64,000 bases of DNA. Origin: an uncultured Pleurocapsa sp. (GTDB lineage Bacteria > Cyanobacteriota > Cyanobacteriia > Cyanobacteriales > Xenococcaceae). A program made the position numbers and the translations under genes. The stretch is taken from NCBI GenBank assembly GCA_964393695.1, contig CAYMWC010000004.1, positions 298 through 64,297 on the forward strand, given 5' to 3'. Of this stretch, positions 8,936-16,193 are shown in pieces. The notes beneath the pieces were generated by a model, which saw nothing but the letters and a program-made list of their open reading frames with translations, had not been told where the DNA came from and searched no databases. Position 1 is the stretch's first letter. The number at the start of each line of letters is the position of its first letter.

Positions 8936-10066
8936 TTAACCATTTTGTAAATTAACAAACCAATTAAGAGTTTTAGGAGAAACCCAACCGTTTTGCGTGA
9001 TAAGTTCGCCAAATTTACGACGGGTTAAAGATTGCTGCTGCAAAATTTCGGTAATTTGTTCTCCTTGGAGTAAGCCTGCATGGTTTAAATAATCGCCCAG
9101 ACGTAGCTTATCTTCAGAGTGAACTAGCCTGGGCAAATCATTGATAAAAAAGTTAATGGTTTCGGCAGGTAGATATCCTTGTTGAATGAGAATTTCTCCA
9201 AAACGGTAATTTCGTTGTTGCTCTTGAATTTTTAATGCTTGTCTGATATTTTGAGGGGATAATAAGCCCGCCTGTTGCAAAATTTCCCCTAAAGGTAAAT
9301 ATTCTGTCTGTAGATAAGGCGGAAATTTATATTGATTTAGCTTTTGCTTGCCCACTAACCAAAATAAAGGCAGGCTATCGATTAGATAACGTTTCCAAAG
9401 TCTAGCAGGTTCAGAGGTAAGGCGATATAGCCATTCTAAGCCCAGATCACTCATGATTTTAGGCGATCGCTTGATATTGCCTGCTTCAAAGTCAATAGTT
9501 GCTCCAATTGCTAGAAATATTTTGATTTTCGGTAATTGCGATCGATATTTAGCGATCCACTTTTCTTGTTTTGGTGCGCCAACTCCTACAGCTAAAACTG
9601 TGGCATCAGAATAATTAATTCGTTCAATAATTTCTTGACATTCTCGCTCATTATTTTCAAAACCAAAGGAAGGAGAATGGGCTGCCACAATAATTTCGCG
9701 CCCTATTTTTTGATTGATATTAATTAATGCTTGTTGTGCCACACCTTCTTGAGCACCTAAGAGAAATATTCTGACATCTTCGTTATATTTATTGTATTCA
9801 TAAAAAGCAGGAAATAGATCAGAACCAGAGATTTTCTCTTTAATTGGATTGCCTAAAAAAAAGGAAATATACTGCAATATTTTGCTGTCACAAACTCGAT
9901 AATTAGAATGATAATAAGCCTTTAATAATTCGCGATCGCTTTGTATTTTAACAAGATGATCGACATTAGGAGTTACTACTATCCCACCATTACGATTTAA
10001 ATCTTCTAATAATTCAATAGTAGTAGTATTGTGAATTGATACATTTAAAAAATCGACTATATCCAT
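8936..10066 (-). CDS. WecB/TagA/CpsF glycosyltransferase with C-terminal MshEN-like repeats
   Basis: TPNVDH, SGSDLF, VGVGAPKQEKW, IGATIDFEAG, GLEWLYRL; C-terminus has four (L/F)G..L...G repeats; ATG 10066 preferred. Confidence 0.93.
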   Translation of the reverse strand: MDIVDFLNVSIHNTTTIELLEDLNRNGGIVVTPNVDHLVKIQSDRELLKAYYHSNYRVCDSKILQYISFFLGNPIKEKISGSDLFPAFYEYNKYNEDVRIFLLGAQEGVAQQALININQKIGREIIVAAHSPSFGFENNERECQEIIERINYSDATVLAVGVGAPKQEKWIAKYRSQLPKIKIFLAIGATIDFEAGNIKRSPKIMSDLGLEWLYRLTSEPARLWKRYLIDSLPLFWLVGKQKLNQYKFPPYLQTEYLPLGEILQQAGLLSPQNIRQALKIQEQQRNYRFGEILIQQGYLPAETINFFINDLPRLVHSEDKLRLGDYLNHAGLLQGEQITEILQQQSLTRRKFGELITQNGWVSPKTLNWFVNLQNG

Positions 10067-10221
10067 ATATTTACAGTTAACAGTCAGCAGTGAGTAGTGA
10101 GCAGTCATCAGGGAAGTAATGGGTAATGGGTAATAAGTGAATAACAGAGGGTACAGAATTTAATTAACCATCAGCTATTATCGGTAATTAGCAATCAAAG
10201 TTAAATTACATTTCAAATAAC

Positions 10222-10378: not shown

Positions 10379-11473
10379 TCACTGTTGACTGATAAACGCT
10401 TCAGTCATCTGATAGGCTTCTTCATCTGTAAACTGTTGGGGAGGGTGTTTCATAAAGTAAGCAGAAGGAGCAGTTAAAATACCACCAATACCCCGATCTA
10501 AAGCTAATTTACAGCAACGAACTGCATCAATTACTACCCCTGCGGAATTAGGAGAATCTTCTACCGAAAGTCTCATTTCTAAATTCATTGGCACATCGCC
10601 AAACAATTTACCTTCAATACGGATAAAAGCAACTTTATTATCTTTCTGCCAAGGTACATAGTCACTTGGCCCTACATGAATATCTTCGTCTTCTAAACGT
10701 TTAGCAATTACTCCTTGTACCGCCTCAGTCTTGGATTCTTTCTTAGAATCGAGACGGGAGCGATCAAGCATATTACGAAAATCGGTATTACCGCCCGTGT
10801 TTAATTGATAAGTTCGCTCAACCTTGACACCGCGCTTTTTACACAGATCGACTAAAGTTCTATGGGTAATAGTAGCCCCAAACTGAGACTTGATATCGTC
10901 ACCAATAATCGGAATATTATGACGTTTAAATTTATCTGCCCATAATGGCTGGCTGGCAATAAAGACAGGAATACAGTTAACAAAAGCCACTCCCGCGTCT
11001 AAGGCACATTCGGCATAAAATTCAACCGCTTCTTGTGAACCAACGGGTAAATAGTTAATTAAAACTTCTGCCCCTGATTGTTTGAGACTATTGACAATTT
11101 CCGCTTTTGATTGCTCAGGGCGATCGCTTACTACAAAAGTATATTTTTCATCAACACCGTTCATGTGAGGGGCAACTCCGTCTAGGACGTTTCCCATTTC
11201 GACTGTGACCCCAGTTGGGGGAACACGATCACAAAAAACAGTTGTACAGTTAGGAGGAGCAAAAATTGCCTCGGCAACATCTTTTCCTACCTTACGTTGG
11301 TCAATATCAAAAGCAGCAACTACTTGAAGATCGTAGGGTTTATAGCCTCCGAGATCCCAATGCATCAAGCCTATAGCGTCTGATGCCTGTTTGCCCTTAT
11401 AATATTTAATTCCTTGGATGAGTGAACTGGCACAGTTCCCCATACCTACTATTGCAATTTTTATGCTCCCCAC
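10379..11473 (-). CDS. ino1: myo-inositol-1-phosphate synthase
   Basis: IAIVGMGNCASSL, NYLPVGS, GDDIKSQFGAT, QLNTGGNTDF, DSPNSAG..IDAVRC.KLA. Confidence 0.96.
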   Translation of the reverse strand: MGSIKIAIVGMGNCASSLIQGIKYYKGKQASDAIGLMHWDLGGYKPYDLQVVAAFDIDQRKVGKDVAEAIFAPPNCTTVFCDRVPPTGVTVEMGNVLDGVAPHMNGVDEKYTFVVSDRPEQSKAEIVNSLKQSGAEVLINYLPVGSQEAVEFYAECALDAGVAFVNCIPVFIASQPLWADKFKRHNIPIIGDDIKSQFGATITHRTLVDLCKKRGVKVERTYQLNTGGNTDFRNMLDRSRLDSKKESKTEAVQGVIAKRLEDEDIHVGPSDYVPWQKDNKVAFIRIEGKLFGDVPMNLEMRLSVEDSPNSAGVVIDAVRCCKLALDRGIGGILTAPSAYFMKHPPQQFTDEEAYQMTEAFISQQ

Positions 11474-11547
11474 GATTTAACCTTCCTCCATTATTGGACT
11501 ACATTATAGGGAAATCTTACAGTCATTGTTTAAAGAATGGTAAACGA

Positions 11548-13341
11548 ATGGTAATCAATTCCACCATAGTAGATGTTCTACTTGATAAATCGGTACACCA
11601 ACCCCATCAAATTGCTTATACTTTTCTAGCCGATGGCGAAAATGAATCAGGTAGCTGTACCTACCAAGAATTAGATCTTCAGGCACGGGCGATCGCGGTA
11701 CAATTATTGACCAAAGTTAAGCCAGGCGATCGCGCTTTATTAGTGTATCCCTACACTGCTGGTTTAGAATTTATCGCTGGTTTTTTGGGTTGTCTTTATG
11801 CTGGAGTTATTGCTGTTACCGATTATCCTCGACAACATATCAAATCGCTGACTCAATATCAAGATCGCATTGTTGATTGCCAAGCTGCGATCGCCCTAAC
11901 CACCCAGGAATTTGCTGACAGGGTGAAAGGACTATTAATTACTAATCCCAGTCTGGCATTAAAACTGAAAGCTCTACCTTGGATCGCCAGCGATCAAGTA
12001 GATTTAGATTTAGCCTCTCAGTGGCAGAAACCTCAAATTACCAGTGATACTTTAGCCTATTTGCAATATACTTCTGGTTCAACAGGACAGCCTAAAGGAG
12101 TGATGATCACTCATGGCAACATTTTGCATAATTCCGAGGTAATTTATCAGTCTTTTGGACATCATCCTGAAACTAGAATTTTGATGTGGTTACCAATGTT
12201 TCATGATATGGGGCTAATTGGTGGTGTAATGCAGCCTCTCTATACAGGATTACCTGCGGTGTTAATGTCCCCCATTGCTTTGGCACAAAAACCTTTTCTC
12301 TGGCTACAGGCAATATCTAAATACAAAATTACTACCAGTGGAGGACCCAACTTCGCTTACGATTTACTCTGTCAAAAAGTCACCGATGAACAAAGAGCTA
12401 GTCTAGATTTAAGCCATTGGTCAGTCGCTTTTTCTGGTGCTGAACCTGTACGGGCAGAAACCCTGGCAAAATTTGCCGAACTATATGAACCCTGTGGATT
12501 TAAAAAAGAAGCCTTTTATCCCTGTTATGGTATGGCTGAGGCAACGTTATTTATTACGGGAGGGAATGCCCAGAATTATCCCACTATCTCTCATTTAGAT
12601 CAAATCGCTTTAACTGAAGATAAGGTGGTGGCGATCGCACCAGATCATCCTAACTCCAAAGCAGTAGTTAGCTGCGGTCGTACATGGTTAGGAGACGAGA
12701 TTATAATTGTCGATCCAGAAACTAAGATTGAATGTGCCAGTGATAGAGTAGGTGAAATTTGGGCAGCAGGTAAAGGTATCGGTATTGGTTATTGGCAACG
12801 GCAAGAACAAACACAAAACACTTTCCAAGCTACCCTGGTGGATAATCCCAATAAAACCTATCTGCGTACAGGGGATTTAGGCTTTATTAAAGACGGCGAA
12901 CTATATATCACAGGACGAATCAAAGACATGATGATCCTCTGGGGACGTAATCACTACCCCCAACACATTGAAGAAACAGTAGAAACTTGTCATCCTGCCT
13001 TGCGTCTTAATCATGGTGCTGCTTTTAGTATTGAAATTAACGGGGAAGAACAATTAGTTATTGCTCACGAAATTAACCGTTCAGACTTACGTAATCTGAA
13101 TGCTGAAGAAGTTATTGGGGCAATTCGTCTGGCTGTGGGCGAGCAAAACTTGGCAAATGTCTTTGCCGTTGCCCTGCTTAAAACTGGTAGTATCCCCAAA
13201 ACCTCTAGCGGTAAAATCCAGCGTCGCGCCTGTCAAAGTATGTTTCTTGATGGTAGTTTAAGCACCGTCGCCCAATGGCAACAGTCAGAAATACCCGATA
13301 CTGATATTACCGATTTAGCAGGACAGTTTTTTACGGATTAG
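11548..13341 (+). CDS. Stand-alone fatty acyl-AMP ligase (FAAL)
   Basis: YLQYTSGSTGQPKGV, WLPMFHDMGLIG, YGMAEATL, FAAL-type insertion, LRTGDLG, HYPQHIE, PKTSSGKIQR; no fused ACP. Confidence 0.93.
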   Translation: MVINSTIVDVLLDKSVHQPHQIAYTFLADGENESGSCTYQELDLQARAIAVQLLTKVKPGDRALLVYPYTAGLEFIAGFLGCLYAGVIAVTDYPRQHIKSLTQYQDRIVDCQAAIALTTQEFADRVKGLLITNPSLALKLKALPWIASDQVDLDLASQWQKPQITSDTLAYLQYTSGSTGQPKGVMITHGNILHNSEVIYQSFGHHPETRILMWLPMFHDMGLIGGVMQPLYTGLPAVLMSPIALAQKPFLWLQAISKYKITTSGGPNFAYDLLCQKVTDEQRASLDLSHWSVAFSGAEPVRAETLAKFAELYEPCGFKKEAFYPCYGMAEATLFITGGNAQNYPTISHLDQIALTEDKVVAIAPDHPNSKAVVSCGRTWLGDEIIIVDPETKIECASDRVGEIWAAGKGIGIGYWQRQEQTQNTFQATLVDNPNKTYLRTGDLGFIKDGELYITGRIKDMMILWGRNHYPQHIEETVETCHPALRLNHGAAFSIEINGEEQLVIAHEINRSDLRNLNAEEVIGAIRLAVGEQNLANVFAVALLKTGSIPKTSSGKIQRRACQSMFLDGSLSTVAQWQQSEIPDTDITDLAGQFFTD

Positions 13342-13390
13342 CTTGATTTTTGATTGTAAATAACTATTACTTGTACATCTATTTCTGATT

Positions 13391-13942
13391 ATGGCTGATT
13401 TGATGCAGTTTTTTATCCCAGATACTTTAAATTTACTCTGGCTAGCAGTTGGGCTATTTATTGCAGGTATTATTGAAGCTTTTTTATGGAAAACAAGTAT
13501 TTTTCAGCTTCTAAATGTGCCGATTCAAACTGCATGGTTCGGCGCAAATAAAAAATGGCGAGGATTAGTTAGTCTTCCTTTAGCTATGTTAATTAGTGTT
13601 TATTTACTACATTTGATTGAAATTTATCTTTTTTCTTTTCCAGAAAGAGCAATTTTATTTTCTAATTTTAATTTAATAGAATTCGGTTTATTAGTTGGTT
13701 TGATTTTTAATTTATCTGAATTACCTAATTCTTTTATTAAACGTCGTTTAGATATCCCTCCTGGAGATGAAAGTAGCAAAATCTTTTATTTTATCGACCA
13801 CATGGACTCTACCTATGGAGTTTTAATTCTTTGGTATTTTTATTTTCATTTTGCCCTACATTTTATTCTTACAGGTTTAGTTGTTACACCATTATTATTT
13901 ATGGGAGCAACAGAATTAAGGAAAAAATTGGGTTTGAAGTAA
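13391..13942 (+). CDS. CarS/DUF46-like (CDP-archaeol synthase family) membrane cytidylyltransferase
   Basis: PI....FG.NKKWRG and SELPNSFIKRRLDIPPG...IDHMDS match CarS/CdsA CTP-transferase signatures; strongly hydrophobic. Confidence 0.8.
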   Translation: MADLMQFFIPDTLNLLWLAVGLFIAGIIEAFLWKTSIFQLLNVPIQTAWFGANKKWRGLVSLPLAMLISVYLLHLIEIYLFSFPERAILFSNFNLIEFGLLVGLIFNLSELPNSFIKRRLDIPPGDESSKIFYFIDHMDSTYGVLILWYFYFHFALHFILTGLVVTPLLFMGATELRKKLGLK

Positions 13943-14975: not shown

Positions 14976-15036
14976 TTTTTTCTGTTACCCGTTACTCATT
15001 ACTTGCTACTCTGATGACTGATTCAAGGTGATTTTA

Positions 15037-15354
15037 ATGTCCCAATATGATCGCATTTATGCAGTTGTTAAGCAAATTCCCCCAGGAAAAGTAGCAACCT
15101 ATGGACAAATTGCCGATTTAGCTGGATTGTATGGCAAAGCTCGGTTAGTGGGATATGCTCTGTTTCGTGTAAACTTAGATGATGATATTCCTTGGTATCG
15201 AGTTGTTAATGCTCAAGGCGAGATTTCTTACTCGTTTCAGCGTCGTGGTGGAGATTATTTACAAAAGATTTTATTAGAAGAAGAGGGAATTGAATTTAAA
15301 AATAATGGCAAAATTGATTTAAATCGCGATCGTTGGCAACCAAATTGTAAATGA
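15037..15354 (+). CDS. Alkyltransferase-like (Atl/YbaZ, MGMT family) base-flipping protein
   Basis: IPPGKVATYGQIA, ARLVGYAL, PWYRV (W in place of catalytic C), LEEEG. Confidence 0.92.
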   Translation: MSQYDRIYAVVKQIPPGKVATYGQIADLAGLYGKARLVGYALFRVNLDDDIPWYRVVNAQGEISYSFQRRGGDYLQKILLEEEGIEFKNNGKIDLNRDRWQPNCK

Positions 15355-15617: not shown

Positions 15618-16193
15618 ATGAGTTTATTTGATGATATCAACCAGTTTTTAGAAGAGCGACTTGACGAATTTTTACGTAATAATCCTCATCTAGAATTACA
15701 GGCAATTGAAGAACAGTTACGAGAACAGGAACAAGATACAAAAAAATTAATTGCCAAATTACAGCTAGAAGAAAAAAACCTTCAAGCTCAAATATTAGAA
15801 ATTGCTAATAATATTCAAACTTGGCACAGTAGAATTAGCAAAGCTGAAGCAGCTAAAAGAGCCGATTTAGCTAATGCTGCAAGAGAAAGAGAAGCGGAAT
15901 TGCTCAGACAGGGAAATCAAGTTTGGGGGCAAATGGAGGGAGTCAAACAGCGGCTAGTCAAAGCTCAAGAACTACTCCAACAAGTGCAACAAAAACATCA
16001 AGAAATTAAAACTCAATCAACCCAAGCAAACACTACTCGCACTGCCAATGGTTATAGAAGTGATACTGTGGGTTGGGATCGTGGTGCTAATTCATCTCAA
16101 TACAGTCGTAGCGCTGATCCTCTAGAAGCAGAATTTCAAAAATGGGAAGTAGATGAAGAATTGGAACAGATCAAAAGAAAGATGAATCAATAA
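15618..16193 (+). CDS. PspA-like coiled-coil protein (TIGR04376 family)
   Basis: MSLFDD..QFLEERLDEFLRNNPHLEL..EEQL; C-terminal WE.DEELEQIK. Confidence 0.85.
   Translation: MSLFDDINQFLEERLDEFLRNNPHLELQAIEEQLREQEQDTKKLIAKLQLEEKNLQAQILEIANNIQTWHSRISKAEAAKRADLANAAREREAELLRQGNQVWGQMEGVKQRLVKAQELLQQVQQKHQEIKTQSTQANTTRTANGYRSDTVGWDRGANSSQYSRSADPLEAEFQKWEVDEELEQIKRKMNQ

Follow-up and report, generated by a model that had tools for sequence, protein, structure and literature searches.

The window, the whole 64,000-nucleotide stretch of DNA analysed here, carries at positions 10379–13942 a trio of genes (ino1, a stand-alone FAAL gene and a gene for a CarS-like membrane CTP transferase) that is real and conserved together. 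We propose, with somewhat more confidence than doubt, that this trio is the Pleurocapsales part of a dispersed route to an inositol-phosphate lipid with a sphingolipid-like backbone, made via a CDP-lipid. The wider reading, that certain cyanobacteria form glycosyl-inositol-phospho-ceramide-like lipids through a CDP-sphingolipid (made by a CarS-family enzyme), a PIS-type transferase and a FAAL acting as the N-acylating, ceramide-forming enzyme, is put forward tentatively, its chances falling a little short of even.

Layout and conservation of the trio

The features of the locus are:
8936–10108, minus strand: GT26 (WecG/TagA) glycosyltransferase with MshEN-like c-di-GMP motifs (PF03808, 2e-53; NF053729), possible accessory
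10379–11473, minus strand: ino1, bacterial-type myo-inositol-3-phosphate synthase, 364 aa, GTG start (PF01658, TIGR03450, 1GR0)
11474–11547, no strand: divergent control region of ino1 and FAAL, 74 bp, strongly conserved
11548–13341, plus strand: stand-alone fatty acyl-AMP ligase (FAAL), 597 aa, without carrier domain (PF00501 and PF23024)
13391–13942, plus strand: CarS-like membrane CTP transferase, 183 aa (PF01864)

The identities given to the three genes in a first-pass annotation agree with both the open reading frames and the domain matches. The gap of about 75 bp that it placed between the divergent genes is 74 bp by sequence, from the ino1 GTG at 11473 (with GGAGGAAGG 8 nt upstream, as read from the sequence) to the FAAL ATG at 11548, and the CarS-like gene does begin 49 bp after the FAAL stop, on the same strand.

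The synteny check that the same annotation had called for came out in favour of co-conservation. In 23 of the 28 Pleurocapsales-type loci the CarS-like gene has FAAL as its immediate upstream neighbour (the two stand apart in the other five), and ino1 is divergent from FAAL in all 19 loci with sequence extending to ino1. The outer flanks of these loci vary while the trio persists, and the space between FAAL and the CarS-like gene holds a GNAT gene, a GT4 gene (decayed in several loci) or nothing. Judged from this comparison, the arrangement of the trio is more than chance. The GT26-MshEN gene, found upstream of ino1 in about 10 Pleurocapsales loci and missing from L024, L044, L046, L052, L054 and L061, among others, was not counted as a core part, being absent in about half of the loci.

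The ino1/FAAL spacer has a mean pairwise nucleotide identity of 94.4% across 19 Pleurocapsales loci, compared with 60% at third codon positions in the first 600 nt of both genes beside it. Its best promoter-like match (TAAACA-18-TATAAT, minus strand, 11532..11503) points to ino1. An RNA element was considered for the spacer and dropped, as an Rfam scan returned no match and RNA folding was no better than that of shuffled sequences; the spacer is more likely a protein-binding promoter or operator.

Proteins of the trio

Full-length similarity to a solved myo-inositol-phosphate synthase (MIPS; M. tuberculosis Ino1, 1GR0, residues 3–361, E=1.3e-120) and the Pfam catalytic domain (PF01658, E=1.2e-36) place the ino1 product among MIPS enzymes. 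It also matches TIGR03450 over its full length (455 bits, E=1.4e-136), below the actinobacterial mycothiol-type equivalog cut-off of 638.

The FAAL combines an ANL adenylation domain (PF00501, 9.3e-65) with a FAAL-type C-terminal domain (PF23024), and its best solved relatives are the FAAL domains 7R7G (4.5e-174), 3KXW and FadD32, with FadD23 and FadD28 also among the top matches; FAAL models of NCBIfam score 403–426 bits, under their cut-offs. No PP-binding gene adjoins or is fused to FAAL in the window or in the Pleurocapsales loci. Two FAAL orthogroups were resolved. The window FAAL belongs to the second: it groups (100/97) with the FAAL beside ino1 in G298 and with the second FAAL of each of the long-chain-base clusters of G364 and G312, and this orthogroup accompanies such clusters even where ino1 is lacking. 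The ACP-loading FAALs, including the copy on contig C45 of the same genome, form a separate clade. The earlier suggestion of a FAAL feeding an ACP-bound pathway is not supported in that form. We propose instead that the window FAAL activates a second, N-linked acyl chain, and infer that it could act as an N-acylating enzyme without carrier or condensation partner, filling a bCerS-type step.

The CarS-like protein matches PF01864 at residues 51–183 (33.8 bits; cut-off 22) and scores 32.3 bits against the archaeal equivalog NF003114 (cut-off 148); by these scores it is a distant bacterial branch and not an archaeal CarS orthologue. Its profile has a sole PDB match, ApCarS (5GUF, E=3e-7), in an alignment covering FG.NK.WRG, ELPNSF.KRRL and D..DS. 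The residues invariant in 12 CarS-like sequences (G51, K54, W56, G58, E110-L-P-N-S114, K117, R118, D136, D139 and S140) fall in blocks that align to the core motifs GDGKT, SFVKRRLGIERG and LLDQLD of 5GUF. An AF2 model (pLDDT 85.3, pTM 0.81) has five long helices plus a sixth, short helix (111–119); a Foldseek search of this model against the PDB gave nothing below E=1, only chance-level helical matches, and did not recover 5GUF. We propose that the protein is a CTP:lipid-1-phosphate cytidylyltransferase. A role as plain CdsA substitute, which the first-pass annotation had named as a way for its idea to fail, is ruled out by a canonical CdsA on C65 (PF01148, 221.6 bits), and a CTP-dependent kinase role is made less likely by the conserved neighbour of the gene, itself a dedicated ATP-type lipid kinase.

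Partner genes elsewhere in the genome

No PF01066 gene was found on the contig of the window, and the three of the genome lie on C351, C244 and C13. A CDP-alcohol transferase had been expected outside the window, and the candidate (C244:4182–4829) is a PIS-like protein whose homologues are named CDP-diacylglycerol--inositol 3-phosphatidyltransferase (EC 2.7.8.11-type) by JGI. It matches PF01066 at 61.2 bits and carries DEFDGRAARAYNQSSNFGAALDMVADR, fitting the motif D-x2-D-G-x2-A-R-x8-G-x3-D-x3-D. End to end it shares 39% identity with yeast Pis1 over 214 residues (2e-41), which we treat as a lead; against PgsA of the same genome the match is local only, and against the best NCBIfam AIPS model it scores 35.6 (cut-off 180). 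The ACP was likewise predicted to lie elsewhere, and the cluster-type ACPs of the genome are on C48, C18, C13 and C497.

A kinase on C1 has human SphK1 as its best match (4V24, 9.3e-48, versus 1e-10 for DgkB). Its GGDG and WGLISDVDIESEK align to SGDG and WGFIADVDLESEK of SphK1, and with GGDG..DWETAI..PGGSGN and SLAWGLISDVDIESEK also aligned it has the motifs of the SphK family, in which we take the second Asp to contact the sphingosine amine. On C48, an ACP-oxoamine synthase (ACP-AOS) fusion has serine palmitoyltransferases as best matches (1e-68), ahead of KBL and BioF. The set by which a bacterial ceramide pathway is recognized, namely an Spt-like AOS, a dedicated ACP, a ligase that forms acyl-ACP and a keto-reductase, is present. 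The genome also encodes PgsA, two IMPases (C41 and C275) and, on C13, an ether-lipid-like cluster with its own CdsA-like and PssA-like genes. Apart from the trio, the pathway genes are scattered over separate contigs, with 45–68% identity to clustered relatives, and the pathway link therefore rests on orthology to those relatives.

Loci outside Pleurocapsales and phylum-wide co-occurrence

In 11 non-Pleurocapsales loci, including that of Acaryochloris marina MBIC11017, the CarS-like gene adjoins a divergent sphingosine-kinase-like gene. Three loci bring further families together:
G298 (Oscillatoria sp. PMC 1068.18): ino1 / FAAL, FAAL-ACP-AOS fusion, SDR, LicD, Stealth, GT4 / CarS-like / DAGK_cat kinase
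G364: FAAL, acyl-CoA-dehydrogenase-like, ACP, AOS, SDR / CarS-like; plus a second FAAL
L063 (Leptolyngbyaceae): glycosyltransferases, PIS-like, kinase, CarS-like, sulfotransferase, epimerase, continuing with AOS, ACP, two desaturases, ACAD-like, lipid desaturase, FAAL

The eukaryote-type PIS-like gene adjoins the kinase in one cluster. In G298, where FAAL, ACP and AOS form one fusion, an SDR gene is adjacent, as it is in G364 and L069.

Across a sample of 401 cyanobacterial genomes, in which the positives represent few independent lineages, the CarS-like gene was strong in five (G000, G101, G288, G298 and G364), the PIS-like gene occurred in four and an ino1 orthologue in five or six. All three were present together in four genomes, G364 having neither PIS-like gene nor ino1, and in their distribution the PIS-like gene, ino1 and the CarS-like gene agree. 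The kinase orthologue was found in G101, G288, G298 and G364, as well as in G000 (the C1 copy), and was absent from G336 and from five AOS-bearing f3 genomes. AOS was rejected as a marker of the module: a distribution as narrow as that of the CarS-like gene had been expected, but Spt-like AOS at ≥44% identity occurred in 24 of the 401 genomes, often within PKS megasynthases, and at 65–71% in f3 genomes without kinase or CarS-like gene. Cultured carriers exist, including Pleurocapsa sp. PCC 7319 and A. marina MBIC11017.

Proposed pathway and alternatives

Genes were assigned to the proposed pathway by homology and context, while we infer its substrates and step order. The C45 FAAL would load a fatty acid onto the ACP of the C48 fusion, which would catalyse its condensation with serine or, less probably, another amino acid, and an SDR on C24 would reduce the 3-keto group to give a long-chain base. 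The sphingosine-kinase-like kinase on C1 could then form the 1-phosphate of this base, and the window FAAL would provide the second, N-linked acyl chain, yielding a ceramide-1-phosphate-like analogue of phosphatidic acid. The CarS-like enzyme would transfer CMP from CTP to this analogue and so form an intermediate of the 'CDP-ceramide' type, on which the PIS-like transferase (C244) would exchange CMP for myo-inositol supplied by the window ino1 together with an IMPase (C41 or C275). Finally, the head group may be decorated by GT4, whose gene is on C46 in this genome but in relatives separates FAAL from the CarS-like gene, and by other glycosyltransferases.

The inositol lipid envisaged in the first-pass annotation is supported, by the co-conserved trio and the PIS-like gene, but not its glycerophospholipid backbone; the comparative evidence favours a sphingoid (long-chain-base) backbone because in other cyanobacteria the CarS-like gene pairs with the sphingosine-kinase-like kinase and with clusters of FAAL, ACP, oxoamine synthase and reductase. 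A glycerophospholipid product, in which CDP-diacylglycerol or CDP-alkylacylglycerol comes from the CarS-like enzyme and is turned into PI (or an ether analogue) by the PIS-like protein, with FAAL feeding an acyl chain, would fit the resemblance of the PIS-like protein to eukaryotic PI synthase (a CDP-DAG user), the ether-lipid-like cluster on C13 and the action of archaeal CarS on ether lipids (PMC9385802). We consider it unlikely, as a canonical CdsA is present, the C13 cluster has CdsA-like and PssA-like genes of its own, the conserved partners of the CarS-like gene are the lipid kinase and Spt-like clusters rather than glycerolipid genes, and de novo phosphatidic acid needs no lipid kinase.

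The trio might instead serve an inositol glycoconjugate or specialized metabolite, either a FAAL-acylated GlcNAc-inositol (MshA-like) scaffold or an amino-alcohol natural product with a phospho-inositol tail. The best solved matches of GT4 do include BshA and MshA (weak, 1e-15 to 1e-10, and in the C-terminal half only), a GNAT takes the place of GT4 in other relatives, and related AOS genes often sit within PKS megasynthases. However, neither GT4 nor GNAT is constant among the loci, several of which carry a decayed GT4, whereas the constant partners (membrane CTP transferase, lipid kinase and CDP-alcohol transferase) follow phospholipid head-group logic, which makes such a product rather improbable. 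That the order was simply inherited without shared function appears very improbable indeed: a single taxonomic order supplies most of the trio loci, so that common ancestry could hold neighbours together, and the CarS-like gene lies apart from FAAL in five of 28 loci, but the trio outlasts its differing outer flanks, conservation in the spacer far exceeds that at synonymous sites, and the same families re-associate in another order in G298, a member of another family.

Comparison with known systems

Textbook cyanobacterial membranes contain four glycerolipids, with PG as the sole phospholipid. If the proposed sphingoid route, which is not known from any organism, is correct, several cyanobacterial lineages would gain an inositol phosphosphingolipid. 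The enzymes that make it would have their nearest counterparts in the SPT, sphingosine kinase and PI synthase of eukaryotes, and a CDP-sphingolipid would enter as a new kind of activated intermediate. This would bear on the evolution of sphingolipid and inositol-lipid head groups, on the role of bacterial CarS homologues and on the assignment of lipid biomarkers in cyanobacterial mats. The literature searched held no mention of 'CDP-ceramide' or of cyanobacterial sphingolipid synthesis, and the one genetic test published for such a pathway in cyanobacteria came out negative (PMC8895605).

Among the reference proteins compared, SPT/LCB2, sphingosine kinase 1 and PIS1 of eukaryotes come closest to three of the pathway proteins. 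In eukaryotes IPC arises through AUR1-catalysed transfer from PI, and sphingosine-1-phosphate serves signalling or degradation; we know of no CDP-sphingolipid.

The archaeal archaetidylinositol route comprises CarS, archaetidylinositol-phosphate synthase and MIPS (PMC9385802). As there, a CarS-family enzyme would activate the lipid phosphate, a CDP-alcohol transferase would add inositol and MIPS would supply it, but the surroundings of the cyanobacterial loci showed no isoprenoid ether-lipid genes, the transferase is of the eukaryotic PIS type (using free inositol) and not of the inositol-phosphate type, and the partners are the sphingosine-kinase-like kinase and Spt-like genes.

Bacteroides has its MIPS gene in a cluster of inositol-lipid genes and ends with inositol phosphoryl (dihydro)ceramide (Heaver et al., 2022; PMC9246714); it first forms PI-DAG, through PIP-DAG or putatively through CDP-inositol, and only then does ceramide receive the head group (PMC9246714). 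The cyanobacterial proposal shares the bacterial MIPS gene among inositol-lipid genes and an inositol-phosphate sphingolipid-like product; it differs in having no PIP synthase/phosphatase and no NTP-transferase/HAD set, and the kinase together with the CarS-like enzyme suggests direct CDP activation of a sphingoid lipid, unlike in Bacteroides. For the ceramide phosphoglycerate of Caulobacter, a lipid kinase (ceramide kinase CC_1160) starts the phosphosphingolipid head group, and Spt is supplied by an ACP together with an acyl-ACP synthetase (PMC11324152). Both traits, a lipid-kinase start and an ACP with an acyl-activating enzyme for Spt, would recur here, although the Caulobacter head group is another one, built without CTP transferase or CDP-alcohol transferase.

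Mycobacteria (Ino1/PgsA1/PimA and FadD32-type FAALs) use CdsA and PIP synthase on diacylglycerol lipids, and their FAALs load PKS carrier proteins, in both of which they differ from the cyanobacterial proposal. Like it, they have an inositol lipid system in a bacterium, and the closest solved Ino1 is mycobacterial, as is FadD32 among the FAAL homologues.

Gene identities and synteny of the trio

The source assembly of contig C4 (6.24 Mb, 99.6% complete) is cyanobacterial, and close relatives of the window proteins carry the names Pleurocapsa and Waterburya. We recovered the three open reading frames of the first-pass annotation at exactly the positions it had given, with spacers of 74 bp between ino1 and the fatty acyl-AMP ligase (FAAL) gene (claimed as about 75 bp) and, as claimed, 49 bp between the FAAL and CarS-like genes. 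The locus reads as follows:

10379-11473, minus strand: ino1, bacterial myo-inositol-3-phosphate synthase (PF01658; TIGR03450, E=1.4e-136; 1GR0, E=1.3e-120)
11548-13341, plus strand: stand-alone fatty acyl-AMP ligase (PF00501 + PF23024)
13391-13942, plus strand: CarS-like membrane protein, 183 amino acids (PF01864 above threshold)
from 14060: ksgA, following the CarS-like gene

The ino1 product resembled Mycobacterium tuberculosis Ino1 (1GR0) over its full length; its TIGR03450 score lay under the actinobacterial cut-off. The top solved relatives of the FAAL were 7R7G, 3KXW and FadD32. A profile of the CarS-like protein and its relatives had a single match, Aeropyrum CarS (5GUF, E=3e-7), with which the conserved blocks FG.NK.WRG, ELPNSF.KRRL and D..DS aligned; a fold search against the PDB gave only uninformative, chance-level helical hits.

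A scan using one genome per species yielded 48 CarS-like loci of the window type, all cyanobacterial except for one weak match, and 28 of these were Pleurocapsales-type (77–92% identity in the CarS-like protein). The trio, flagged in the first-pass annotation as a possible source of an inositol phospholipid or lipoglycan anchor, proved to be syntenic in this group: FAAL lay directly upstream of the CarS-like gene in 23 of the 28 loci, and ino1 was divergent from FAAL in all 19 with sequence reaching that far. The outer flanks varied, with ksgA downstream in the window, a metallo-β-lactamase and SecA in PCC 7319, and GFA and a PIF1-helicase in Waterburya. Variable too were the contents of the FAAL/CarS-like gap, which holds nothing in the window, a GNAT gene in PCC 7319 and others, and elsewhere a GT4 on the opposite strand, in intact, split or remnant form. 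Broken, split or short forms of this GT4 occur at loci L033:9169-9787, L041:9573-9827, L049:9637-9756 and L024:8620-9847. The Pleurocapsa genome itself carries an intact, 74% identical GT4 on another contig (C46:9397-10656); no GNAT orthologue was found in it.

The 74-bp spacer between ino1 and FAAL showed a mean identity of 94.4% among 19 genomes, compared with about 60% at third codon positions within the first 600 nt of the two flanking genes. TAAACA-18-TATAAT, the region's best promoter-like site, falls within the spacer and is oriented towards ino1. An Rfam scan of the spacer gave no match and RNA folding no unusual structure. We read the spacer as a putative, densely used divergent control region.

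Two further genes downstream in the window deserve mention. A 108-amino-acid protein with an O6-alkylguanine-transferase DNA-binding domain (15028-15354, plus strand; PF01035) has PWYRV in place of PCHRV at the active-site position and is therefore probably no transferase but an alkyltransferase-like (ATL) damage sensor. The gene at 15618-16193 (plus strand) encodes a TIGR04376-family protein (257 bits) that is also similar to TIGR04375, 'hercynine metabolism protein'.

Neighbours of the CarS-like gene in other cyanobacteria

Outside Pleurocapsales, a DAGK_cat kinase of 420–445 amino acids was adjacent and divergent to the CarS-like gene in 11 loci, including those of three Acaryochloris genomes (one being A. 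marina MBIC11017), a Leptolyngbyaceae, two Oscillatoria, Lyngbya, Limnospira and a Xenococcaceae genome. In Oscillatoria sp. PMC 1068.18 (G298), the ino1/FAAL pair precedes a FAAL-ACP-aminotransferase fusion and SDR, LicD, Stealth and GT4 genes, after which come the CarS-like and kinase genes. Genome G364 has FAAL, acyl-CoA-dehydrogenase-like, ACP, oxoamine synthase (AOS) and SDR genes adjoining the CarS-like gene, with a second FAAL beyond and no ino1 in the set. At the Leptolyngbyaceae locus (L063), kinase and CarS-like genes adjoin a PF01066 gene 54% identical to one on contig C244 of the Pleurocapsa genome; its flanks hold five glycosyltransferases, a sulfotransferase, an epimerase, AOS, ACP, two fatty-acid desaturases, a dehydrogenase-like gene, a lipid desaturase and FAAL.

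More distant CarS-like homologues (30–36% identity) from other members of the phylum (L018:5454-6026, L019:194-859 and L020:8165-8752) each lie right after an 860–890-amino-acid protein with a PEP-utilising/PPDK-type-looking N-terminus, two of them near a 310–335-amino-acid membrane protein that by eye is UbiA-like; they form a different subfamily in a different context. Arthrospira platensis PCC 7345 has a CarS-like gene on two scaffolds (L064:4121-4669 and L065:2106-2654), with no partner genes found within the flanks examined.

Candidate pathway genes elsewhere in the Pleurocapsa genome

The putative pathway has a dispersed layout in Pleurocapsales. Searching the assembly by tblastn, we found a single orthologue of each of these partner genes, all on contigs other than C4:

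C45:3653-5434: FAAL
C48:7216-8850: ACP-AOS fusion
C24:1102-1950: SDR
C1:30977-32296: kinase
C244:4182-4829: PF01066 gene (PI-synthase-like, PIS-like)

The last of these would supply the CDP-alcohol transferase that the first-pass annotation had expected outside the window. Its product has the CDP-alcohol transferase motif, and its homologues bear the JGI name CDP-diacylglycerol--inositol 3-phosphatidyltransferase. It aligned end-to-end with yeast Pis1 at 39% identity, which counts as a lead only, since the Pis1 sequence used did not come from a database; with the PgsA of the same genome it shared a 58-residue local match and nothing more. The top matches of the AOS were serine palmitoyltransferases (3A2B, 1e-68; plant LCB2a; human SPTLC2), with KBL and BioF ranking below them. 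The best match of the kinase was human sphingosine kinase 1 (9e-48; DgkB, 1e-10), with the SphK motifs aligned, including WGLISDVDIESEK versus WGFIADVDLESEK. Canonical CdsA (C65), PgsA (C351) and two IMPase-family proteins (C41 and C275) are also encoded.

A maximum-likelihood tree resolved two separate FAAL orthogroups. The window FAAL grouped with the ino1-side FAAL of Oscillatoria sp. PMC 1068.18 and the second FAALs of G364 and G312 (support 100/97), and the ACP-loading clade (85/86) included the C45 copy and the FAAL domain of the Oscillatoria fusion. Two FAALs per system are compatible with a two-chain lipid. The window type accompanies long-chain-base genes also in systems that lack ino1, which suggests that it serves the lipid backbone and not the inositol.

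A second unusual lipid cluster lies outside the window on contig C13 (G000:C13:36522-48668; L083:6523-18669). It encodes a fatty-acid desaturase, an SDR, a CdsA-like protein (301 amino acids), a PssA/archaetidylserine-synthase-like CDP-alcohol transferase, a FAD-linked oxidase with the look of alkyl-DHAP synthase, a PlsC-type acyltransferase, phosphatidylserine decarboxylase, a FAAL-ACP followed by a reductase domain split over two ORFs and, by eye, an MFS protein. The cluster has the appearance of a myxobacterial-type pathway to ether-linked PS/PE, which would be unusual for a cyanobacterium.

Distribution across the phylum

Distribution was scored in a single fixed set of 401 genomes from the phylum, absence meaning not found among those searched. 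The CarS-like type was present in the Pleurocapsa genome (G000), G101, G288, G298 and G364, which are relatives representing few independent lineages. The PIS-like gene occurred in the first four of these, as did the ino1 orthologue, found additionally in G336 and as a broken copy in G344. Besides the C1 copy, the kinase orthologue was detected in G101, G288, G298 and G364, and was not found in G336 or in five genomes of family f3 with 65–71% identical AOS. By this presence pattern, therefore, the kinase gene co-occurs with the CarS-like gene and, within that set, ino1 with the PIS-like gene. Long-chain-base genes are more widely spread, AOS at ≥44% identity being present in 24 of the 401 genomes, in many within PKS megasynthases.

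The f3 genomes that lack the kinase or CarS-like module carry a FAAL-ACP-AOS set together with a second FAAL of the window type (L085; G312:C8:28000-46000) beside a B12-radical-SAM/DUF4070 protein, a Rieske oxygenase and two Asp/Asn β-hydroxylase-like proteins; this set may represent a different fate of the same amino-alcohol backbone.

Proposed pathway and comparison with known systems

The observed part of the pathway consists of homology-based gene identities, the conserved adjacency and co-occurrence of the genes, and the presence of housekeeping CdsA and PgsA; from this we infer its chemistry. FAAL, ACP-AOS and SDR would produce a long-chain base, to be phosphorylated by the SphK-like kinase before or after N-acylation. 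Use of the window FAAL for N-acylation would give a two-chain lipid phosphate, an analogue of phosphatidic acid, and the CarS-like enzyme with CTP would form a CDP-activated lipid of one chain or two. The PIS-like enzyme would couple this to free inositol derived from ino1 and IMPase, and GT4 and other transferases would lengthen the head group.

Our literature search found neither 'CDP-ceramide' nor phrases for cyanobacterial sphingolipid synthesis, and the only cyanobacterium studied genetically in this respect, Nostoc punctiforme, was concluded not to produce sphingolipids (PMC8895605). In Bacteroidetes, the route to inositol sphingolipids passes through PI-DAG and then a transfer step, with CDP-inositol as a putative alternative (PMC9246714); that to the phosphosphingolipids of Caulobacter has a ceramide kinase acting first and no CTP transferase (PMC11324152). 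Archaea pair CarS with an inositol-phosphate-type transferase (PMC9385802). The pathway proposed here would follow the same logic of CdsA/CarS plus CDP-alcohol transferase, but on a sphingoid lipid.
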